Shown here: piece by piece, positions 20,829 to 64,000 of the stretch
How positions within the stretch are numbered: the stretch's first letter is position 1
How the letters are laid out: each line of letters opens with the position of its first letter
NCBI GenBank assembly: GCA_951406725.2
Contig: OX597831.1
Location: 26,040,001 to 26,104,000, forward strand
Length of the DNA: 64,000 nucleotides
From: Octopus vulgaris
Lineage: Eukaryota
Direction: 5' to 3'
The notes under the pieces: model-generated
Told to the model about the DNA's origin: nothing
Database searches by the model: none
The model's input: only the letters and a program-made list of their open reading frames with translations
Translations under genes and position numbers: made by a program

Positions 20829-21417
20829 TTAGTAATAATACTGTTTAATTTAGAAGAGTTATAGTTATTTCAGTATAATAAACTGAGAATAAATATCAAA
20901 AGAAGTTGGTGGGAGTAAAGCAGATTTGCAAATCTGACACAAACACTTCACAGTGAAGGTAGCCAGGAATAAAACCAATGATAAATATAAATTTAGTGAT
21001 TCAAGTCAACAGGTAATTTTGGCAGCTCTCCATATAACTTTCGGTAAAAAAAAAAAAAAAAAAGAATGAAAACAATAGCCTTTTTTTTTTTTTTCAAATA
21101 TTATTTTTGTTCTTTTACTGATTTTTATCATTGAATTCTGGTCACATTGTCTTCAAGGACATAAGATGATCGTATTAACCCTGTGCTTATATCAATATGA
21201 TTTTTCCCCAATCTTTATTTCTCAAACCCTTAAGTTAATGTTTTGACATTAGAGTCCACATCTTCCAAATAATACTTGCAGTCCATTGGTCAGACAGAGG
21301 TTAAAATAGATGAAAATTGTCAAGTGTTAAGCAATGAGAATGAACCTGGAACCATGTAGCTGCAAAATAAACTTCTTAACCAAATAGTTATACCTATATA
21401 TATATATATATATATAT

Positions 21418-21834
21418 ACTCTTTACTCTTTTACTCTTTTACTTGTTTCAGTCATTTGACTGCGGCCATGCTGGAGCACCGCCTTTAGTCAAGCAAACCG
21501 ATCCCGGGACTTATTCTTTGTAAGCCCAGTACTTATTCTATCGGTCTCTTTTGCCGAACCGCTAAGTGACGGGGACGTAAACACACCAGCATCGGTTGTC
21601 AAGCAATGCTAGGGGGACAAACACAGACACACAAACACACACATACATACATACATATATATATATATATACATATATACAACAGGCTTCTTGCAGTTTC
21701 CGTCTACCAAATCCACTCACAAGGCATTGGTCGGCCCGGGGCTATAGTAGAAGACACTTGCCCAAGATGCCACGCAGTGGGACTGAACCCGGAACCATGT
21801 GGTTGGTTAGCAAGCTACTTACCACACAGCCACT
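21418..21834 (-). mobile_element. SINE family A
   Basis: Homology to other family A copies. Confidence 0.92.
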
Positions 21835-46367: not shown

Positions 46368-46918
46368 ATTACTTAGTGCTTCAGTAAGGCAGAAGATTCA
46401 CCAGAATAGTTACCAGGCTTCAAAAAAAAAAAAATGGCTGTATGGTAAGTAGCTTGTTTACCAACCACATGGTTCCGGGTTCAGTCCCACTGCGTGGCAC
46501 CTTAAGCAACTGTCTTTTACTATAGCCTCGGGCCAACCAAAGCCTTGTGAGTGGATTTGGTAGACGGAAACTGAAAGAAGCCCGTCGTATATATGTATAT
46601 ATATGTATATGCGTGTGTGTGTTTGTGTGTCTGTGCTTGTCCCCCTAGCATTGCTTGACAACCGATGCTGGTGTGTTTATGTCCCCGTTACTTAGCGGTT
46701 CGGCAAAAGAGACCGATAGAATAAATACTGGGCTTACAAAAGAATAAGTCCCGGGGTCGAGTTGCTCGATTAAAGGCGGTGCTCCAGCATGGCTGCAGTC
46801 AAATGACTGAAACAAGTAAAAGAATAAAGAAAAGTGCTGTGGTTGATTCATTTGACTAAAATTCTTCAAGATGGTGCCCCAGCATGGCCACAGCCTAATG
46901 ACTGAAACAAGTAAAGAC
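46166..46918 (+). mobile_element. Old SINE A subfamily copy interrupted by a younger SINE A (46434-46828)
   Basis: Old head at 46166-46425; old tail resumes at 46834-46918 after the complete tail of the nested copy. Confidence 0.8.
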
Positions 46919-48585: not shown

Positions 48586-49717
48586 TGCTTCAACACACGA
48601 AATCATATAAAGACTCTTGCAAACCAAATCCCAAAACAAAATTAGTCATTTTATTTTCATTGATATCAATAAAATTTTTAGGAAATGCACCAATGCCAAA
48701 GCTCATTTCCCCTTTCTTAAAAATTGAAGCTTTCTTATCTAAAATTTCATTTTTAATCAAGAACTTGGAATATTATCAAACAACCTATTAAACAAACTTA
48801 ACAAGCCAAATGAAGATATTCATGTGAAATATCTTCGATCTAGTCTATATTGATCAAGCTAATAACACAACAGTACTACATCTTATCACTAGCATTTACA
48901 ACTAATAAGATAAGGCGGTTGATGCACCTGAGTAACAAAGAGTAAAGTAAACATATTAGTGAATTTAATACAAGCATTCTTTATATCTCTTATTCTTTAT
49001 CTCTGTAAGATAATGCAGCCTTTCTATGTTCTTAACTTTCTATAATCTCTCATAATCCAGTGATATTTTTTTTTTTTCTAATCATTATATTTGATAAGTT
49101 GTCATCTTTGATAGGATTATAAAAAAAGGATGTCAATCATTTAAAAAATATTTGATCTTTGTATTGTATTGAAAACTATCAAAATTTTTCTAGATTTATT
49201 AACAGAAAAATCACTTATTTTTCATATGGCCATTCGTTAATTTTTCTTTTAATGAATATTTAAATTGTATAGGATGACAGATGAAGTAAAAGAAGTTATT
49301 TATTAAAAAACAAAGATGCTTAGCAAATAGGCTTTACCTATCAAAATATTATGATAATCCATTACAGATTATAGATATAGAGAGCTTAATATATATTTTT
49401 TCTCTCGCCAATTTTGTGGTTAGATGGCTTTGGGTCACTTTAAACATACACTGGACGGCTATTTGTTACAGAATGAAACTTTGGTTTTGCTTTTAAAATT
49501 TTCATTGCTCAAATATATTTAAAGGAGATTCTAAGATAAAGGAAAGGAAAAGAAAAGAAATGATATATTTTTCAATGCTTGAAATTAACTGACCGGAATC
49601 TATTGCATCAGCTTAAATCTTAGATTTCAGCCGAAGCCGGTCGTTTGCAAAACTCTGCTGGATTATATGAAGGAATTTACCTAAAATATTTGCTTTAGCT
49701 AAATCTCACTTTTGATA

Positions 49718-49772
49718 ATGCATGCCAATGTTCAAGCCCAAGTAGCAGCAACAGCTAGTGGCAAAATCTCTG
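49718..49772 (+). CDS. Candidate first coding exon, MHANVQAQVAATASGKIS(G), gene unidentified
   Basis: In-frame TAA at 49700-49702; ATG 49718; G|GTAAGA donor, phase 1; paralogous to 63189-63243; lies in about 1.5 kb with no recognisable TE. Confidence 0.6.
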
Positions 49773-50341
49773 GTAAGAAGACTTGCATCTCCCTATATTC
49801 ACCATTCCACAATTCATTCTGAAACTAATATCATCACTGCCAACATCACCACTATTACTGTACTTACATTCGCATTTTCTTTTTCTGTGTTCACATGGGT
49901 TCTTAATTACTCTATAAATACTTCAAATTGACTGTATGTTTACCTAATTATTTCTTGTTATTAACTAATTAGATTTTCCACTAACTGTTTGATATGCTAA
50001 TTTATTTCTTAACTGGATTTTTCTGTTTTAATTAAATACTCCGGATTAGTTCTTAACTATTAATTATAGAACAGCGCACTTTACTAGGTAATCAACAATT
50101 TGTTTGTTGTTGTGGTTGTTGTTGCTGCTTTTTGTTATTATTGAGCAGCAGAATTATTTGAGAATCAGAACAAATACCACACGGTATTTGTTCTGGCACT
50201 TTACATGCTGAGTTCAATCTATGCCAGAGTCGACTCTGTGTTTCATCCCCTCCAGGGCCAATAAAAGTGTTGGGATCAGTATAGGCATCTGATACCCATC
50301 CACGTCTCAAAACTGCTGGCCTTGTGCCAAAAGTAGAAAGG

Positions 50342-50373
<32 letters not shown>

Positions 50374-51577
50374 CATTATTATTATTATTATTATTATGTT
50401 GTTGTTGTTGTTGTCAGCATTTTCCTCACTGTCATCGTTGCTGCTGCTGCTGTTGCTAGCAGTTCCAAGTCTCACCCAGTGACCTCAAGTAAAAACAAGC
50501 CGTTTGTTTTAATGTGAATATTATTTATGAGTAGCAAATGATACATTGCATGAAAAGGAGTCCCAATTCTGAGAATCAATATTTTGTCAAAAGTTTGTTT
50601 TAATAGTTCTGATCTTGAAAGAGTTTAAGACTGAGATATTCTCAAACTGATAGTATTTTTTTCTTAGAACGTAGACTCTACTCATGAGAACAATTTGTTT
50701 GTATTTCTGATCCTTTGTGGTTTCTTGGTATTTAACTACAAGGTTTAAGTGTACCAGTAACACTAACAGCTAAACCTCTCCTCTTCATTAACCTCACTGT
50801 GGCACAAAGAAACAATAGTGAAATTGATGAAATACACACAGCTTCGTGACAAAATTCAAACAAAAAGAGATGGGTTTTGAGAAGCTCATCCTTAAGACTC
50901 CAAAAGATATAATTCTGATGAAAATGTCATGAGATGTTGGAATATTGTAAAAACCCCTTCCCGCTTCTTCAATGTTACACTTTCTTTTGAACCCAAATGA
51001 GTGGCTTCTCTCACTTTTTCTCCATCCACTGTGGTCATATTTGGGGTTAGCTCTGTAAATGCACATGGCCTGGGTCAGTCAGAAAGCAAAGTGACTTACT
51101 TATCAATCTCAGGTCCCTAGATTTAGATATGGTGGTGGGTATCAGTGAAGCCCAACCACTTTGAGAATTGTTTCTTCTCAATGGCTATGAGATGCAATGC
51201 TTTTTATTTTCTAGATGCAAACTGGGTTGGTCGACTGACTGGGGACAAAACCACGATGTAGTGGATGACCTAAAGTTTTAAATAAAATCCAACATCATAG
51301 TCTGACAATCTTTGTGGAGCTTCAAAAAATAAATCTGTACTTTAGTTTGAAAACAAAAATGTCAATTAGGATTAAGTTAATCCTGTTAGTAGATGTAATG
51401 GCTCCTTCACTAATTGTAAAATTCTTGTGTCTGACTGTATTAAAATATAGGTCGCCTACATTAATTTGATGAAGTTTCATAATCAGAATACACAGAGGTC
51501 AAGTAAAGACATCTTTTATAAATGCTGTCCAAATTCTGTTTGCATACTTTGCAGTAGAAGTGCTAAATTGCCAAAAA

Positions 51578-51800
51578 GGTGGTGAGCTGGCTGAAACGTT
51601 AGCATGCCTGGTGAAATGCTTAGCGGTATTTCATCTGCCATTACGTTCTCAGTTCAAATTCCACTGATGTCGACTTTGCCTTTCATCCTTCCGGGGTTGA
51701 TAAATTAAGTACCAGTTATGCACTGGGGTCGATGTAATTAACTTAATCTCCTTGTTTGTCCCCTCTATGTTTAGCCCCTTGTGGGCAATAAAGAAATAAG
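51578..51800 (+). mobile_element. SINE family B with TSD aattgccaaa
   Basis: Repeat at 51566-51575 and 51801-51810. Confidence 0.9.
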
Positions 51801-52126
51801 AATTGCCAAATTGTCAGTGTCAGACAAAATATCTTGTAGTATTTCTTTTAGCAATTCTCAATTCAAATACCATCAAGGACAATTTTGCCTTTCATTTGTC
51901 TGTGTTCGTTACAATAAAATACCAGTCAAATAATAAAACTGATGATTCCAACTTCTTGTCTCCCCTCAAAACTGCTGGCCTCTTGGAAACAATTATATCT
52001 GTTTGTGTGTACTAGTTTCTTTCATATGTGTGTTTATGTTCGGTTATGTATATGTAGGTGTATACTCTTTCACAAATTACAGTCTGAAGGTTGTGGTTCT
52101 GCAGGGATAATGCTTGTACTAACATT

Positions 52127-52368
52127 TATTTCTTTATTGCCCACAGGAGTGGAAGGGGGTTAAATATAGAGGGGACAAACAAGGACAGACGAAGAGATTA
52201 AGTCAATTACATTGACCTCAGTGTGTAACTGGTACTTATTTAATCGACCCCGAAAGGATGAAAGGCAAAGTCAACCTCAGTGGAATTTGAACTCAGAACA
52301 AAACGGCAGACGAAATACTGCTAAGCATTTCGCCCAGTATGCTAATGATTCTGCCAGCTTGGTGCCCT
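52127..52368 (-). mobile_element. SINE family B with 16-bp TSD
   Basis: tgcttgtactaacatt / tgcttgtgctaatatt. Confidence 0.9.
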
Positions 52369-52719
52369 TGCTTGTGCTAATATTGCTGTTACTGCAGTCC
52401 TCTTTCTGTCATTGATTTTTGGTGAATGAGGTAGTTTGGTACTACTACCCTCATTTGCAATTCTGGTCATACAATTGGTTCAGCTGGGATTTCAAACAGG
52501 AGAATATCCAAGACCTCTTTTGATTTTTATTAATACATTCACATCCACTCCATTTACATTTCTCAAGTTTTTTGGTTAGATATTAAAAAGCAGTGAGCCT
52601 TTGAACTGTAAGCCTTTTGATGAGTCAGGTGGGATCTTTGAAACCACACATTGGTAACCATTTCACTGATTGTTATAACTCACATTACTAAAATTTAGTG
52701 TTAACCCTTCAAGGATCTT

Positions 52720-53055
52720 CCATAGACATGGCTGTGAGGTAAGAAGTTTGCTTCCCAACCACGTTGTTCTGAGTTCAGTCCTACAGCATGGCATCTTCGG
52801 TAAGTGTCTTCCCTCATGAGTCGATTTGGAAGATGGAAACTGCAAAAGCCCATTGTATATGCATGTGTATTTATGCCATTGTATATGTGTAAGTGTGTTT
52901 ATGGCCCTGTAACTTAGCGGTTTCTCAAAAGAGACTAAAGGAATTAGTGCCAGGCTTTAAAGAAATGTACTGGGGTGCCAATTTGTTTGACTAAAATTCT
53001 TCAAGGCAGAGCCCCAGCATGGCTGCAGACAAATGACTGAAACAAAAGATAAAAG
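52720..53055 (+). mobile_element. Old SINE A subfamily copy
   Basis: Divergent homology to family A. Confidence 0.75.
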
Positions 53056-53270
53056 GTATCTGGCAGCTAGTGAGAATGACTGCTTATATAACTGAGTGCA
53101 TGACCATAACAAGGCCACTACAAAAAGCAAGGGCTCCCAGTATAGCTCCCTGAAGCACTCCACTCAATCTTGTTTCATTTCAGAGAGAGAGTATCAAGAG
53201 CTGCATCTGCAAGACTTCTGCCCCTCAAAATGTCCTGCAACCGCTCTCCTGGTTCTCCAAATATGCTGAT

Positions 53271-53500
53271 ACCTATTTCTTTATTACCCACAAGGGGCTA
53301 AACATAAAGGGGACAAACAAGGACAGACATTGGTATTAAGTCGATTACATCGACCCCAGTGCGTAACTGGTACTTAATTTATCGACACCGAAAGGATGAA
53401 AGGCAAAGTCAACCTCGGCGGAATTTGAACTCACAACGTAATGACAGACGAAATATGGCTACGCATTTCGCCCGGCGTGCTAACGTTTCTGCCATGCCTT
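53271..53500 (-). mobile_element. SINE family B
   Basis: Homology to other family B copies. Confidence 0.9.
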
Positions 53501-53825
53501 TTGATCTCATTCTATGATTAATTCCATTGCAAAAATCAAGATATACCACAACCTTATTTGAATGGTTGAGTAACAGTTTCATCTCCCAGTTGTGATGCTG
53601 TAGTTACCAAGTTACCAGTTACCAAGTTATTGTCTTAGAACATAACCAGATTCCATTTGATAATTCATTCCATGACTTTGCTGGTTTGTAAATTTTTAGA
53701 GGTTCCTTTGCTTCCTCCTCTATGAATATGCCTTCCCTTTACTTTTAGTGGTATTTCCCACTTGCCAGGAAGCTTTAGAAAAGTACCTGAAGTGGTTTAG
53801 CTAAAGCCTGATGATAGGTTTTTAA

Positions 53826-54045
53826 CCCTTTAGCATTTAAACTGGTCAAATCCAGCCTAAATATTCTTCATGTTTTACATTCAAACTGACCATATCAAGC
53901 CTCTCACACCCAACTTATACTGACATGCTCAAAATAAACAATCACATCATCTAAACCACTAAGATATAAGATAATGCATGATTAATTCAAAACAATTTGA
54001 TTAAAAAAATATTAGATTTGGCAGGCTAATCTGAAGGCTAAAGAG
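53826..54045. mobile_element. piggyBac-type MITE M1, uninterrupted
   Basis: TTAA|ccctttagc...gctaaagag|TTAA. Confidence 0.75.
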
Positions 54046-54664
54046 TTAAGAGAACTACTTGGGTGCCCATTGAGGCCTAAGACCAAGTTTAAATTCAATT
54101 AATCTATGACTGATATTACATTTTCCTTCTTTATATCATTCAACGTAATGTTTGCCACTTCCCTATGTGTCAAAAGCTACATCTGGTTGATTTATCTCTA
54201 TGTGTTCTAGAGTCAAATTTAAAACACTTTAAAAAGCTTTTTCAGTATTTCACTTCCAATTTTATTGTTCTGCAGTTTGAGTTGTCTCCTTGAAATACTG
54301 GCCCCACTTTGTAATCTCTGCTGGCGCTAACTTTCTATTGAATTAATAGAAACACTTTTAAGATTCCTTTTATACATTTTCTATAGCCCTGGTTTCTCTT
54401 TCTGATCTCTTCTTTTCTTGAAAGTGTTTGCTCTCTTTCAGTTGTCCATTTAAGCTATTTGAAACCGTTGTTCTATGTCCTCGGGTCTTCCCTTTCTGTG
54501 GGTCTGTTATATAAAGTACCATTGAAGACTCTGTGTGTGTGTGTGTGCGTGTGAGTGTGTTTAATACTATATATCATTTGGTCACCAGCAACCATGAGAG
54601 AGTTAATCTATATTCTAGTCTTGATATTGAATACGTTTTCTCTTGTTTTGACACTAACATGTGT

Positions 54665-54696
<32 letters not shown>

Positions 54697-55223
54697 ACAT
54701 CAATTTACTAATCAATGTCGATTTGTCTCTGAAGTCAAATACTTATTCCTCCGTGTTTTGATATGAAAGATACCAGTGTGTTTGTGTGGAAACAAACCTG
54801 TACAGAAGATTTTGTTTGTTAGGCTGCGTAGAAATTTGTACACATTCTTTCACAGATTATCATAAAGTCTATGAGACTGTGGGCACACACATGTGTACAG
54901 TAGTTCAAAATCCTTATTAGCCTTTATATGTGTAATTCTGAAATGCAGTCTCAGGTCGCTGCAGCATTTCCGTGTACTCTTAAGTTTTCGAGTGTACTCT
55001 TAAAAAAGAAATACTTTGAAAGTGAATATTTATTTTAACATGTTCTATTTGACTTTTTTGTTTTCCTGCTTAGTTTCTTAAAGCTGATTAGTTTAATCTG
55101 ATCATCTTTCCTTACAATATCCACTATTAGAAGTTGCATATTTAGTATAATAACCACTGCAGTCAGAAAATTGATTTTTTTTTGATTTTTTTTAGATATG
55201 AAGTCTTTCATTTTTCTTATACA

Positions 55224-55623
55224 AGGCACAGGAGTGGCTGTGTGGTAAGTAGCTTGCTAACCAACCACATGGTTCCGGGTTCAGTCCCACTGTGTGGCAT
55301 CTTGGGCATGTGTCTTCTGCTATAGCCCCGGTCCGACCAATGCCTTGTGAGTGGATTTGGTAGACGGAAACTGAAAGAAGCCTGTCATATATATGTATAT
55401 AAATATATATATGTGTGTGTTTGTGTGTCTGTGTTTTTTCCCCCTAGCATTGCTTGACAACCGATGCTGGTGTGTTTACGTCCCCATCACTTAGCGGTTC
55501 GGCAAAAGAGACCGAGAGAATAAGTACTGGGCTTACAAAGAATAAGTCCCGGGGTCGATTTGTTCGACTAAAGGCGGTGCTCCAGCATGGCCGCAGTCAA
55601 ATGACTGAAACAAGTAAAAGAGA
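55224..55623 (+). mobile_element. SINE family A, full length
   Basis: Homology to other family A copies. Confidence 0.93.
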
Positions 55624-55773
55624 AAACTACAATTTCTGTTTTTAATGACACAAAAGATTAAAACTTAAGGGAATTACAATTCTACGATTCTACTTCATGG
55701 AACATCTGATTGGTAACTTTGTAGAAGTATTTTTCCTTTCATTAATAATTACCAGTAGGTAATTATTAATTAT

Positions 55774-56020
55774 AGGCGCAGGAGTGGCTGTGTGGTAAGT
55801 AGCTTGCTTACCAACCACATGGTTCCCGGTTCATTCCCACTGCGTGGCACCTTTGGCAAGTGTCTTCTGCTGTAGCCTTGGGCTAACCAAAGCCTTGTGA
55901 GAGGATTTGGTAGACGGAAACTGAAAGAAGCCCGTCGTATATATGTATATATATATATGTGTGTGTATATGTGTGTGTATGTTTGTGTGTCTGTGTTTGT
56001 CTCCACAACATTGCTTGACA
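55774..56020 (+). mobile_element. SINE family A, 3' truncated
   Basis: Homology to other family A copies. Confidence 0.9.
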
Positions 56021-57414
56021 GTATTTGGATCTAGGTGATATTCATATCACATTCTTTTCATGGGAAATTTCAGATATATTGGCCAACCCTTCTGAGCCTC
56101 TTATTCTATTCTGAAGAGGGCCAAATTTGTATAAGATTTGGTTTTCAAATGAATATTCCCTTTTCTGCTTCAAGATATAAAGAATGAAGCCATTGGTTGC
56201 GATATTTTCTTATTCATTATATTTATATTAGTTGCGATATTTTCTCATTCATATTTATGGATGGCATCAGAAATGCCATCCACAGAGAGGTTTGTGTCTT
56301 AGAAGGATTCCAGGTATACTACTTCTGTCCTTCTACAATGGCATACTTTCTGTAGTTACTTTCAGCAGTGTGGTGATAGTATTTATTTGAAGTAAAAAGT
56401 CCTCCATACAGAACTCTTTGAATTTTCTTCTTTCCTTTGTCAGAGACTTCTTTTCTATTCTCTACGAAATTTGGCCTTCTACCAATGTTAACAATGTTGT
56501 TATTGTTGCAAAATTATGATTTATAAATAGATTCATTATTGATATTGATGAATCTCTGTGCAGCAATCAATCAAATTAATCAGAAATGCTGTATTGATAA
56601 GGAAAAGCATTTCCTCCTGTATTTTCTGACACACTTAAGCCATTTTCTATACACATCATTTATCCCATTCATTAAAACTCTGAGCAGGTATTCGAAATTT
56701 GTTGTTATTAAAATGGGGTCAAGATAAGCCAGATATTAGATTATCATACTATCAGATGGACTGCTTGGTTTTGTTCCTTTAGCTCTTTATTTAGCCAAAT
56801 ATGGCCAGTTTAAATGCTAAAGGACTATATTATGATTTCCAGTCTCTCTTAGAACTAACTTTGCTTATCAGCCTTCTTGAATTTAATGAAAGAAGCTCCC
56901 AATAACAATAATAGTAAGAAAGATACTTTCTTCTGACTGGTATCAAATTTGGAGGAATCATTCTCTTGGGAATTTATTAATATTTCACGTCTGCATCAAA
57001 TTTTTCCATTACTTCTCAAATTATCCAAACAAAAAAGAATCTGAAACTCTGAAATTGTTTTTAGTGTGGGTAGAATACATATTTGAAAATAGTGTTGCTA
57101 GAATGCACAGGAAATTTCTAATAAGTATTATGATAAAAATATGTCTGGTCTGATGCTTACCTCTCTTACTCAGGAATGAAAAATCATAATTTAATCCTGG
57201 TAATTCTTAAACTCAGAATATAAAGTTATTTAATTACATAATGTAACGCATTTAAATCTGCAGTCTTACCATTTCTTTGATTAGATGAATATGTAAATGA
57301 TTCAGATTTGTTCTTCATAAAGCTTACCTTATTATTAATCCTCCCAACAGTCTTCTTAACAAATTAATGAATTATCAAGATGCATTCAGATGTGAAAAAT
57401 TTATTGATTTATGG

Positions 57415-57503
<89 letters not shown>

Positions 57504-57520
57504 CATATATATATATATAT

Positions 57521-57569
<49 letters not shown>

Positions 57570-57590
57570 TAGACACACACACACACACAA

Positions 57591-57626
<36 letters not shown>

Positions 57627-58057
57627 GATCCATGCCAGCATGGAAAATGGATTTTAAATAATGATGATGATGATATATAAATATATACATCGTTGCTATA
57701 ATGCAAAGGTGTCGTAAGTCCAAAATGGTTTTACAAAAAATAAAAAAAAGAATGCTTTCACCATTCCATAGCAAAACTGTTGTACTACACTTTGACAATT
57801 TTTGATATCTTGGCATATCAGAAACAGCTGGTGGTACGATAGTTTGACCAAAAGAATCGGCTATTGCATGCAAAAATAAATATTGAAAAAAAAAAAAAAT
57901 TTTGCCAAATTTGGACATACGACAGTTTAACATAATAGCAATGATATATATATACACACACATAGTCATGATTCTTTAAGAAAAACAGTATGATGGCTTA
58001 GCTGGTCAAAACTTCAAAGTCACTGTCAATACTATTCTTGTTAAAGAATAATATGTA

Positions 58058-58624
58058 TTGGGTTGCCCGGTAAGTTTGTGCCGATTTATAGTAGCTTACC
58101 TTTCGACTTATTTTAGAACATGGTTGTGTCCATAAATTAGGATTTGACTATGCCTCCATATAAAGCACAGTTTAAGCTATCTTTTCGTGGAAGAAGGTTT
58201 ATGTTCCTATAACCTGTGTTAATTCTATAACCCTTTAATATGGAAGATAAGAAAGTTCATTTTCGGCACTTGATGCTTTGTGAACCAGATAAAAATTGCT
58301 GCAGCTCAGCTGGGATGTATTACCTCACCCTCCATATTCCCCAGATATTGCTCCTTCGGATTTCCACTTATTTAGATCTCTGCAGAATAATCTTAATGGT
58401 AAAAATTTCAATTCCTTGGATGACATAAAAAGATACCTTGATGAATTCTTTGCCATGAAACCACCTCAATTCTGGGAAGAGGGTATTTTTCAAGTTAAAG
58501 GAAAGATGGAGACGCATTGTGTAATAAAATGGTTCATATTTGGTTGATTAAATATGCAATGGCAAGTATTTATTGACCTTTTTCTTTCCTTTAAAACTCG
58601 GCACAAACTTTCCAGACAACCTAA
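58058..58624 (+). mobile_element. Internally deleted mariner transposon
   Basis: TA TSD; TIRs ttgggttgcccggtaagtttgtgccga / tcggcacaaactttccagacaacctaa; transposase N-terminus MEDKKVHFRHLML joined to C-terminus WDVLPHPPYSPDIAPSDFHLFRSL. Confidence 0.93.
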
Positions 58625-59039
58625 TACTTCACAAAAAATATGGAGTAGTCCTTCAGTTTAATGTACAATCGTTTTTATTACAATTTAACACACACACGTG
58701 TGTGTGTGCAGTGCTATGAGCTTTGCTTCATTACGTGAAACCAATTAGATTAGTGAGGTCAAACAGTGCACCTTTCCCTAATATTCCTGTTTCTTTTCTT
58801 TGTTTACAACAACAGCAAGTTGTAAAATACTGTTGCTTAGTTTGCTTACAGTCGTGATGCTAGTAACACTAGTATGATTGATGTTTATTGTTGAAGATAA
58901 TTTATGAGTTCATGGCATTATTAGGAATTTTTGGATCATTTCCAATAATCTGGGCAGTGAGTGAAGCCAATCTTGCTTACCATTTCTCTCGTATTCATTC
59001 ATGAACAGGAATATTGTCAGACGTAAATAGGCCGGTATC

Positions 59040-59565
59040 TTTAATCTTTTACTTGTTCCATTCATTAGATTGTGGCCATACTGGGGCACTGCCTTGAACA
59101 ATTTTAGTCGAATGAATTGACTCACCCCACCTCCACCCCCACCCAGTACTTCCTTTTTGTTTTAAAAGCATGGTACTTATTCCATCAGTATCTTTTGCCA
59201 AACTGCTAAGTTACAGGGACCTAAATGTACCAGTACCTATTTCTTTATTACCCACAAGGGGCTAAACACAGAGGGGACAAACAAGGACAGACATAGGTAT
59301 TAAGTCGATTATATCGACCCCAGTGCGTAACTGGTACTTAATTTATCGACCCCGAAAGGATGAAAAATGTACCAGTACCTGTTGTCAAGCAGTAGTGGGG
59401 GACAAACATTGATGCAAACAGCTCCCTCCCCCCCACATATGACAGGCTTCTTTCAGTTTACATCTACCAAATCTACTCAAATGGCTTTGGTTTGCTTGAG
59501 GCTCTAGTAGCAGACACTTGTCCAAGGTGCCAACAGACTTCCTACCACATAGCTATGCTGGTGCT
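59040..59565 (-). mobile_element. Old SINE A copy with a nested 5'-truncated SINE B (59239-59364)
   Basis: 16-bp TSD aaatgtaccagtacct at 59223-59238 and 59365-59380. Confidence 0.85.
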
Positions 59566-59879
59566 CAAAAAAAGAGACAGCATTACGTTTAACTCCCAGC
59601 ATTAGTGATATAATCTTTTCATCCCTGCCTTTATATTTTCAAATTGTTTTATTTAATACAAAAAGCTAAACAGAATTTCTTAGACTGAAGACTCTACTTT
59701 TACCAAAAGTAATTGATTTTTGCTTTATCTTGTCTTCCCCACCCCTCCTTTCACTTTTCGTTACACAGAGAGTCTCAGAGTATTCTAGGACACATTTTAC
59801 TCATAACAGCGATTTCTGACATACAGTATTTACTGAAAAAGTTGACTAATAGAGAAAATATAATAACTCAAAGTATCTT

Positions 59880-60440
59880 CTTCCTGAAGAGAAGGGCCAG
59901 TTATTGGTACATGGTCCTAGTTATGTTAAGGATGTCCTTTCATCTGGAGAGATCCACAGTGATTTTGAGACCCAACATTTGTAGCGCATAAGAATGCTGT
60001 GCTTAAGTACTGTTTATGGTTAAGGGGAGGTGTTGTGCGATGATGTTTTTTTAATATGAGTAGCATTGGTGTTTTGTTGCTGCTGAAAGAACCAAGTTTT
60101 GCGTATGATTGGGAGTGGATGATGAATGATAGGGGCATATTAAGGAGGAACGATGGTTAGTGACATTTGTAAGAGTGGGTGTTGGTGGATATGGCAGCAA
60201 ATATAGTAGTGTATAGATGGATGAAAGGAAGGGCAAAATTGAACCCTGGTTCACACTGGAATTGATAAAATGATGACCGGGAACACTTGTAGTAATACTG
60301 CATCAACACTTGTAGTAATACTGCAATCTGATGGGAAGTTACTGATCAAAGGAAATGAAAGATAACGGATCCAATGAACTGGAAGTTTCAAAGATTGGTC
60401 AAGAGTGAAGCACACATGTTGTCAGAAGGAGTTTGCATAA
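59880..60440 (-). pseudogene. Possible highly degraded Penelope-like RT fragment
   Basis: Frameshifted minus-strand remnants loosely resembling PLE RT motifs (FT...SL.FLD...YYK; LPF...L..IC); by-eye match only. Confidence 0.3.
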
Positions 60441-62416
60441 AATTAGTGGAGGTCTGACTTGTATACTATTGTATGCATAGTACATGGGTACATAGTATAA
60501 GGATATATAGTACATTGATACATGGATGCATAGTACATGGTACATGGATATATATAGTGCAATTATAATACAGGATAAAATAGCTTGAGATATTAAGTTA
60601 TGCCCTTTTACATTATGAGTTCAAATCCCACCAAAGTTGATTTACCTTTCCAGAGTTAATAAAATCAGTACCAAGATTTTTTTGTTTTTTTATATTTTTT
60701 CCTTGTTTCTGTATTTGGTGAGGCTGTAAAGAAGAGCATTGCCACATGGAGTTGGTACAACTGACTGTTTTTCACCCACAAAAATATGCTTGTGTGTTTT
60801 GGACAAAAAAAAACCTTACAGTATTTAGTTATGTCCCTTTATTCTGAGTTAAATACTGCTGAGGTCGACTTTGTCTTTCATCCTTACTTATTGATAAAAT
60901 AACCACCAGTCTGGTGTGCACCATGGTATACATACTCGACTGTTCACTTGCCAAAGTTTCTGACCTTGTTCCTAAACAAGAAACTACATTATTGGAGCGG
61001 TGGATTAGGAGGGTTGATCAAGTGCTGGGAAAACACCTTAAGTTAAGTTCAAATGTAACCAGGATTAAATTTATCAACCATCCTTCTGGCATCGATTTGA
61101 TAGATACCTCTCAAGTACTAAGGTCATCATTGACACCATCATCTTCTTGATCATTACTATCATTATCATTATCATTATCATCATCATCATCATCGTAATC
61201 AACATAATTGTTATTAATGAGCAAAATGTCAATAAAAGCTGTTGTATTGTAGACACACACACAAACATAGATCATACATACATACACACACTCACAAATA
61301 TGCATACATATAAACACACACAAACATACACCCGCCAATCCACAAACACACACACACACTCACATACACGTGCACACACACACGTGCACATAGATATCAC
61401 AGTTAATGTGGATCAATATTCTTAAAACAGAAGGCAACTTTAATCTAAGGGTGAGAAAATGAAAGCAAGAAAGAGAGAGAGAAAGACAGAGAGAGAGGGA
61501 GAAACGACAGAGAGAGAGGGAGAAAGAGTGACTGAGTGGAAGAGTGTGTGAATGAGTGCATGAAAAGGAGGAGGAGAGAGAAAGAGGGAGAGCAAGAAGA
61601 GAGAGAGAGATTTCCTTTTTAAATTAATAAGCTATATAATGCTATATAATTCCATAACTGATGAAGGAAAAACAAGATAAAAAAAGAACTTTCTTTAAAA
61701 TCACTGATAAAATTCATTCACTCATATCAATGATGTCTTTCTATAATTTTCTATGTTTTTTGTTTTCCATATTCACATCATCTCAATTTTTTTTTTGTTC
61801 TTTACATTTTATCATCATAACCATTATCATTTTACTTCTTTTTATCATTATCATCATCATTATTATTATCATTATTATTATTATTATTATTATTATTTTT
61901 TTAATATTTTTTTTTTTAGATTTTATTCTTTGCTTTATATTTTTTATTGCTACAATGGATTCATTGAAAGATTGCTGAATATCATATCTTGGTATTTTGT
62001 TTTCTAAGTGTGAGTTAACTAAAAACAATAGCTCACAGTTCTGTTATTTTACTTTTTTGTTGTTAGGTTATTGTTATTTTTTTTTTTTTTTACTAATATG
62101 TATGCCTCTGTAGAAATGTTATTTTATGCTGGTTGTTTTTTTTTAATTCCAAAGTGGGGATTTTTTTGTCATATTTATTTAGTTTATTTTGTTTCTTCTT
62201 TAATTCCTCTTCCATTTACTCTCTATGTTTTGTTCTTTTTTTGTTTTGTTTTTTTTTCATTAGTTTTAAAACTACTGGAAAAGAAAAAAATATAGATAGG
62301 TAGGCAGATTAAGCAAATATAAAAAATAACAGACACTGAGAACTAGTAAAAGATAGAGAGATAGATGTTAATCTTACTGAATATGTATTTACTGATCAAG
62401 TTTAATCTAAGGTAAC

Positions 62417-62417
<1 letters not shown>

Positions 62418-62454
<37 letters not shown>

Positions 62455-62750
62455 GTGTAAGAGAGAGAGAGAGAGAGCAAGAATATATAAGAGAGAGAAA
62501 AATTGTGTGTAAGTGAGAGAGAGAGCAAGAGAGTGTGTATAAGTGAGAGAGGGAGCATATAAGAGAGAGAGATACTATAATAGAGAGAGAGAGACAGTAA
62601 TAAGGACTTATGAGAGAGAGAGAGAGAGAGATACTGTAAGAGAGAGAGAGAGAAACAGTAAGAGAGAGAGACTGTGTGTGTGTGAGAGAGAGAGAAAGAA
62701 AGTGATACACACTCACACACATGTAGTTAGTAAGACACACACACACACAC
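62418..62750. repeat. Degenerate (GA)n-rich tract upstream of the candidate exon
   Basis: Directly visible. Confidence 0.9.
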
Positions 62751-63188
62751 AAATAGAAATAAAATTAACATAACTACAAAATAAGAGGATGATCAATCTA
62801 TAAAAAAAACACAAACTTCAATACAATAAAAATAAAAACATCAAGCTGCAGTTGTCTTTTTATCTTAGTTTTTGAGACTATTTCAATTCGAAAGTTGAAA
62901 TGTAAGAGGATACTTATAAATAAAGGAGCTAAAATATCCAAGACTCATTTATGTTCACATTTCCAACTGGACAAATCTACAATTCGGACTCACTTATAAA
63001 ACTCATAATTAGGTCTAAATTTCTTCTGACCTGATCTTATAATCTGCAATTCTTGACATTCACAGTTCTCTGGTCTGAAACTAAAATCTGAAATCCAGAC
63101 TCGCTAATCTCTTAATCTCTTTAAGTCAAACTTCAGAATCAGACTGGCTTACTTTTTCGTTTCTTCCGGCCACCAGAGTAAGGACAGT

Positions 63189-63243
63189 ATGCACACAAAT
63201 GTGCAAGCTCACGTTGCAGTTGAATCCGCTCATAAAAAATACG
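63189..63243 (+). CDS. Candidate first coding exon, MHTNVQAHVAVESAHKKY(G), gene unidentified
   Basis: In-frame TAA at 63105-63107; ATG 63189; G|GTATTT donor, phase 1; same 55-nt coding length as 49718-49772 and shared MHxNVQAxVA. Confidence 0.6.
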
Positions 63244-63718
63244 GTATTTTCATTTCAAATTTGACTCATTTTAACAATTTTTATGTTATAAAGTTTGTTC
63301 CTGTGTTTCTTAATGAATCGTTCATTGACAGACTTTCTTTTTTTTTTCTTTTTGCCCGTCTTGCTTCATATATTTCATATGTGTATAGACAAATAGATGT
63401 GCTTTTCTTATTTTCATATTTATAACAGATGTGTAGAAATAGGTCCATGAGGAGGTGTTGGTTCTTATATATATATATATATATATATAATATAGTTCAA
63501 TTAAAGGTTAAAAACCTCCTTAAGGGATAATAATATCTGATGAATTTACAAGTTTATTACCTATTATTTATTTTGAATATTTGATTTAATATTCAAAAAT
63601 AAGGTAATAATTAGAGATTATGTCTAGTCTTGTAATTAATATATATAATTATTAATTGATTTATCACTGTTTTCTTATTTTTCTTATATATATGTATACA
63701 TGTATATACATAAATGTG

Positions 63719-63760
<42 letters not shown>

Positions 63761-64000
63761 TTAATTAATGCTTATCTTTATGTCAAGTTATATGTAATAT
63801 AAAAATCAACTTAATCACACACACACATATATATATATATATACACGCACACATGCACACACCTCTCACACACATATATAAATATACTGAAATACCACAT
63901 AGGAGTACAAACCATCAATCAACAGGTAATATTAATTTTTATAACCAGCATTATTTTGTGTTTAACAAATTAGTAAAAACATAACATATATATCAGACAA

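Follow-up and report, generated by a model that had tools for sequence, protein, structure and literature searches.

Look-alike alternative first exons in the KChIP gene of Octopus vulgaris and a conserved ten-residue N-terminal tip

Which gene do two small, look-alike start exons of Octopus vulgaris belong to, and what might the short peptides that they encode do? The exons, here called A and B, lie in a window of 64,000 nucleotides (nt) of contig OX597831.1 (assembly GCA_951406725.2, positions 26,040,001 to 26,104,000, forward strand), which was examined together with 400 kb downstream and 200 kb upstream, that is, over 664 kb; positions above 64000 continue the window's numbering beyond its end. 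An initial annotation, made from the letters alone, described twin 55-nt start exons joined in phase 1 to a common acceptor beyond the window. It named three example genes with such a layout, and one of these, the Kv channel-interacting protein (KChIP, gene family KCNIP), a neuronal calcium sensor that assists potassium channels of nerve cells, proved to be the gene in question. A PKA catalytic subunit, a plectin-like gene or some other gene was abandoned as a candidate after the KChIP identification.

Two first exons before one shared exon

Exons A and B very probably serve the octopus KChIP gene as alternative first coding exons, both joined to one shared exon. They are two of nine ATG-bearing, phase-1 first coding exons that we mapped before this shared exon over ~370 kb by placing annotated cephalopod N-termini on the 664 kb. 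The features that carry this assignment are the following.

About 97 kb before the window: a further first exon
49700 to 49702, + strand: in-frame TAA, 6 codons upstream of the exon A ATG
49718 to 49772, + strand: exon A, coding part, probable first coding exon of a KChIP isoform, donor CTG/GTAAGA
62890 to 63188, + strand: unspliced 5' leader preceding exon B, to the limit reached by three aligned contigs
63189 to 63243, + strand: exon B, coding part, probable first coding exon of a KChIP isoform, donor ACG/GTATTT
63244 to 64000, + strand: start of the 214-kb intron following exon B
277207 to 277331 (L024:3207-3331): shared 125-nt phase-1 exon, from the splice-site scan
322274 to 353091: KChIP core exons, with two alternative last exons

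Both coding parts have the twin 55-nt form first described, an ATG and 18 codons plus G, directly before GT. Exon A encodes MHANVQAQVAATASGKIS plus the first base of an Asp codon, and exon B encodes MHTNVQAHVAVESAHKKY, again with the first base of an Asp codon. In-frame stops precede both ATGs, as had also been noted, at 49700 for A and at 63105 for B (a TAA, 28 codons before the ATG). Since a first exon is located ~97 kb before the window, the entire window lies inside the KChIP gene.

The gene was identified by a splice-site scan, which yields four KChIP exons downstream, the first of them being the 125-nt shared exon, whose acceptor at 277207 is in phase 1. It lies 227 kb downstream of A and 214 kb downstream of B, out of reach of a strict exon scan that covered the first 200 kb downstream and came back empty. 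Octopus records titled "Kv channel-interacting protein" match this exon at 100%, and one copy was found in the genome by a tool that gives lower bounds. Compared with the PDB, the O. sinensis protein P0126 is closest to KChIP4, KChIP1, KChIP2 and calsenilin chains (E 1e-77 to 1e-74), with NCS-1 at 2e-53; the best 12 of 32 matches are all KChIP or calsenilin chains (238-263 bits), followed by NCS-1 at 184 bits. The octopus core has Pfam EF-hand matches and canonical loops at 104, 140 and 188, and its AlphaFold2 model is helical, with a mean predicted local distance difference test score (pLDDT) of 74. Its first EF loop contains CPTG at 69, which we take to be the KChIP signature of a first EF-hand that is unable to bind calcium.

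That both exons join one downstream acceptor beyond the window in phase 1 is borne out for A by RefSeq models and for B by contigs. In two of these models, P0126 (XP_036365586.1, O. sinensis X7) and P0127 (XP_052830182.1, O. bimaculoides X10), exon A stands directly before the shared exon; its peptide is identical in O. sinensis and one residue off in O. bimaculoides. For exon B, contigs from 4 of 24 listed runs were aligned, no listed run being recorded as RNA. Two of these runs, X2 from organism A in study P2 and X13 from organism C in study P5, yield contigs that depart from the genome at 63243 with a 29-nt loose end identical to the opening 29 nt of the shared exon. Because this join spans 214 kb with GT at one end and AG at the other, we read it as a splice. 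The X5 contig ends exactly at the 63243 donor and the X11 contig at 63183, short of it.

All four contigs read through the leader of exon B with no joint listed. Three begin at 62890, 62914 and 62935 and the fourth extends past 62770, which corresponds to a leader of ~250-470 nt. An unspliced leader is consistent with a first exon, the start site itself lying beyond what contigs can reveal, and by inference rather than by mapping, separate promoters quite likely drive A and B. The exon B leader also contains three short, out-of-frame upstream ATG frames at 62789, 62900 and 62951 (4, 1 and 27 codons), which could damp translation.

Two points weigh against this assignment: the exon A junction rests on gene models in two Octopus species, and the runs behind exon B are guessed to be RNA, have a depth of 3-11, and lack the junction in two of four cases (X5 and X11).

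Exon B starts none of the 15 O. bimaculoides and none of the 8 O. sinensis RefSeq isoforms listed, nor any other of the 307 proteins examined in all (three main octopus cluster members fall outside that set). When exon B and the 22 codons before it were searched against longer proteins, a weak search confined to cluster representatives, no candidate came up. It is very unlikely, in our judgment, that A and B are instead mutually exclusive internal exons behind a common non-coding exon, or the first exons of two tandem genes. Acceptor-like AG sites do lie immediately before both ATGs, but every contig on B traverses the leader without a joint. The tandem paralogous genes that the initial annotation had offered as its own alternative are contradicted by the shared exon, which was found just once; moreover, a scan of the 664 kb gave no third copy of the motif common to A and B, the two exons scoring 44.5 and 46.5 and the runner-up 28.5.

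Probable duplication and conservation of the ten-residue tip

In all likelihood, A and B arose by duplication of one exon. Eight of their first 10 residues agree, as first reported, and 9 of 18 over the full length; after Met there are 7 matches in 9 positions, with a probability of at least 7 of 9 of ~1e-7 per pair and ~4e-6 over 45 pairs. Clear likeness among the mapped first exons is confined to A and B. Their first 30 nt are identical at 23 positions, and the four third-base codon differences originally listed are all present. None of 200 shuffles reached the likeness score of the two coding parts, while 40 of 200 reached the score of the leaders and 152 of 200 that of the introns, in agreement with the description of unlike flanks. 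The claim of surroundings poor in transposable elements was checked through masking at the exon starts, both of which are unmasked. The absence of a coding exon between the two also stands, in that no annotated cephalopod N-terminus maps there.

Among 2277 unmasked frames of ATG plus 18 codons in the 664 kb, 13 pairs are at least 8/10 alike; GT follows at +56 in each member of two pairs, and G/GT in each member of the A/B pair alone. The other 12 pairs resemble DNA repeats (not examined singly). A degenerate pattern of the motif has two matches in the 2.8-Gb genome, exons A and B, and its reversed control has none. A genome-wide protein search with B returned B alone and not even A, and this search was insensitive, since A was missed.

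There is good reason to think that selection acts on residues 1-10 of A and B. The Logan protein P0151 begins MHTNIQAHVAAGSNTEEY, and its tip, MHTNIQAHVA, is 9/10 identical to that of B, with Tyr18 as in B. The core of P0151 is identical to that of the cuttlefish Acanthosepion across the 171 positions compared, and 6 positions set it apart from four octopod cores, so that, from its sequence, the protein very likely comes from a squid or cuttlefish. Octopods and squid or cuttlefish split ~270 million years ago. The peptide conservation in other cephalopods that the initial annotation had proposed to look for is seen, for A in two Octopus species and as a B-like tip in P0151. This conservation is anchored to the initiator Met and declines after residue 10. 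When the N-terminus of P0151 was searched against short proteins, two candidates came up, both matching via the shared exon, and no further motif copy.

Outside the cephalopods, the best match among 240 distinct N-termini is Lingula XP_013392500.1, MYTNLRAWMTARLIPEKE, which has 18 residues before Asp and a score for which 0.024 occurrences would be expected by chance among 148 clusters. This post hoc match is a hint that the Lingula N-terminus may be related to the A/B tip, and the ancestral exon is possibly as old as the split of molluscs and brachiopods. Haliotis MISAAQAKV was rejected as a relative, 1.4 such scores being expected by chance.

Strict constraint on the tip is contradicted by exon B of organism C, covered by a single contig, where the sole coding difference is A7T, a motif residue; the divergence there (1/55 coding positions versus 12/299 leader positions) is too slight a contrast to be significant. 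No cuttlefish-type copy of A was seen among the proteins examined.

What the tip may do

Residue 2 of both A and B is His, there is no Cys within residues 1-18 and no hydrophobic run, and the mean hydropathy is at most 0.2, near 0. The two tips thus carry no myristoyl, palmitoyl or transmembrane signal, and lacking Gly2, Cys and a hydrophobic run, A and B would be soluble isoforms. AlphaFold2, run on a 50-sequence alignment, gives residues 1-30 a pLDDT below 50 and residues 1-19 no structure or helix.

The textbook partner of a KChIP is Kv4, and the octopus genome encodes a Kv4 channel with a Shal N-terminus and its Trp/Phe pair, with this first exon:

L063:475-1584 (G000:C4), - strand: Kv4/Shal first coding exon, 369 codons up to the pore loop

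Judging from the family, the octopus KChIP core would very probably bind Kv4. We propose that the choice of promoter would determine which N-terminus a transcript carries, that the KChIP core would bind the Kv4 N-terminus and hide the channel's own N-terminal blocker, and that the A and B isoforms would supply a replacement, with the tip acting as a tethered peptide on the Kv4 channel. For mammals, a review describes that KChIP binding to the Kv4 N-terminus abolishes the channel's own fast inactivation (PMC3973911). The idea of a pore blocker arises because a conserved stretch fixed to Met1 on a free linker resembles a tethered blocker, and because DPP6a and DPP10a set a precedent in mammals: their five-residue exon-1a motif is reported to block the Kv4 pore even with KChIP bound (PMC3973911, PMC9409431). 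Like the A/B tip, their MNQTA is short and conserved, stands at the extreme N-terminus of an auxiliary subunit of Kv4, and comes from a single alternative first exon, according to the same accounts (PMC9409431, PMC3973911). A short stretch conserved in register at a free N-terminus, on a segment of low pLDDT, is also a feature of N-type peptides, albeit a weakly discriminating one.

Gating control is the role proposed here for the tip, and N-type pore block is its most likely single mechanism, but we nevertheless regard pore block as unlikely. Slightly less likely still is the complete chain, in which an ancient KChIP first exon, kept in coleoids and duplicated in octopuses, would encode an inactivation ball, and promoter choice would toggle Kv4 between a slow and two fast N-type modes. 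The tip itself is not typical of a ball. It is uncharged and mildly apolar rather than strongly hydrophobic, and residues 11-18 have a charge of +1 in A and B and -2 in P0151; the classical ball, as characterized in PMC3634772, is hydrophobic with positive charge nearby, although that paper also shows exceptions. The low pLDDT at residues 1-30 may merely reflect a shallow alignment there. DPP6 and DPP10 are membrane proteins of another family whose pore block was shown experimentally, whereas pore block by an octopus KChIP is a guess, and MNQTA has no sequence match to MH[AT]N[VI]QA. Finally, the four classes of KChIP N-termini set out in the review include no pore blocker (PMC3973911).

A docking motif and a passive spacer are each, as classes, at least as likely as pore block, and both leave the gene layout unchanged. 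As a docking or targeting motif, the tip would recruit another protein, such as a trafficking adaptor or a hub like dynein light chain LC8, with no contact to the pore, which we consider a realistic if tentative possibility. The [VI]-Q of the tip presumably resembles the LC8 anchor, and a short, disordered, conserved stretch would suit any linear motif, with many conceivable partners. Localization is, moreover, the main role described for KChIP N-termini (PMC3973911). Conservation of the tip is, however, linked to the initiator Met, a residue that most docking motifs can do without, and the Lingula look-alike has Arg in place of Gln. Somewhat more doubtful is a passive peptide, where only the promoter would matter and the likeness of A and B would be left over from duplication or imposed by translation start or N-terminal processing. 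The very short tips of the array, such as MQMFVFE, leave little functional room, and A7T in organism C points the same way, as does the suggestion made in PMC3634772 that N-terminal conservation may serve to evade modifying enzymes. Yet leaders and introns retain no likeness, while silent-site differences mark four of the seven shared non-Met codons, and octopus and cuttlefish-type sequences are 9/10 identical despite different residues 11-17.

The same layout would also allow the tip to fold into the hydrophobic groove of KChIP itself and compete there with the Kv4 N-terminus. Each of the four peptides has hydrophobic residues at positions 1, 5 and 9, spaced as in a helix, and L-R-A-W-M of Lingula resembles V-A-A-W-L of octopus Kv4. 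Binding in the groove is described as requiring Trp8 and Phe11 of Kv4 (PMC3973911), but in A, B and P0151 the Trp position is taken by Gln or His and residues 1-16 include no Trp, Phe or Tyr; nor does AlphaFold2 predict helix within residues 1-19. Mimicry of the Kv4 helix is improbable given that the cephalopod peptides lack those aromatic residues, and we consider this explanation improbable as a whole.

The first-exon array and what it adds

All mapped first exons are in phase 1 and end at GT, and the array includes an exon with Gly2, MGQNITTTLR. Beyond the window it comprises:

71830, 108596, 145435, 202003, 254520 and 273053: further first exons
120377: exon with its own acceptor

Two of these first exons, MDEISWWS (254520-254544, L022) and MDGTIWKSV (273053-273080, L023), also look alike, sharing 4/9 residues after Met, and are possibly the product of a second duplication in the array; a cuttlefish-type isoform has MDSASWKS (P0133, P0150). 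No exact counterpart in the 664 kb was found for the O. bimaculoides N-terminus P0128 or for the cuttlefish-type P0131, P0132/P0134 and P0133/P0150. By profile scan of the same 664 kb, the gastropod and bivalve N-terminus types MN..C..GRR, MGQ.LRR..SRR and ..YSCCL.. were not found, and the type MFRM..LFPPLRKHLL is retained; the three former types may have been lost, have diverged, or lie further upstream. The cuttlefish-type proteins P0130, P0134 and P0151 have 1-6 extra residues between first and shared exon, which suggests micro-exons, and scallop and Lingula isoforms have similar short inserts. Variation continues in the core, with an optional 21-nt exon, SIAGRTM (322274-322294), immediately ahead of the first EF-hand loop, and a choice between two last exons (349547-349600 and 353044-353091); cuttlefish-type proteins show both kinds of variation as well. 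The intron is filled with an interspersed repeat family of ~400 bp, whose copies are 80-93% alike (e.g., 1348-1765, 21414-21834, 46435-46828 and 55229-55626), and with a second family of ~230 bp. Open-frame fragments at 161195-161702, 372818-373720 and 447977-448576 resemble, by eye, a Tc1/mariner transposase and reverse transcriptases of long interspersed nuclear elements.

Swappable N-termini are the textbook design of KChIPs. Mammals have four KCNIP genes, whereas in the octopus one shared exon was found, with nine first exons over ~370 kb. The octopus MGQNITTTLR exon resembles the myristoylated class of mammalian KChIPs. Unlike mammalian KChIP N-termini, A and B are mutual paralogues; having none of the three membrane signals, they would fall into the "cytoplasmic" class, but with a conserved tip. 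In the UGT1, protocadherin and GCNT2 clusters, the variable exons are large and stand in paralogous arrays. The octopus array consists mostly of unrelated, tiny first exons, with one clear and one possible paralogous pair. Mammalian KCNIP1-4 are described as having several start sites (PMC3973911) and, like the octopus gene, join varying first exons to a constant core of four EF-hands; tandem first exons that join constant exons and multiply by duplication are reported for the UGT1, protocadherin and GCNT2 clusters (PMC1885805).

The KChIP layout of swappable N-termini is thus already known, and an isoform with exon A is annotated in RefSeq. New are the unannotated exon B isoform, the exon duplication, and a conserved tip without a myristoyl, palmitoyl or membrane signal. 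The records and literature searched, a scope outside which most subscription papers fall, contained neither exon B nor the A/B duplication nor the conserved tip; within that scope there was also no match for the A/B peptides or for octopus Kv channel-interacting isoforms, and no title on N-type inactivation by an invertebrate KChIP N-terminus, while one paper, with two mentions, came up for KChIP in cephalopods.

The first exons of the octopus KChIP gene, in this reading, multiply by duplication, and their array is now mapped. The exon B isoform and the array map help annotation and studies of excitability in cephalopods, and would not surprise a KChIP specialist. Were the tip a pore blocker, it would represent a new class of KChIP N-terminus and a convergent counterpart of DPP6a and DPP10a; as an inactivation ball, it would make this octopus protein a KChIP that restores the very gate that KChIPs are known for removing.

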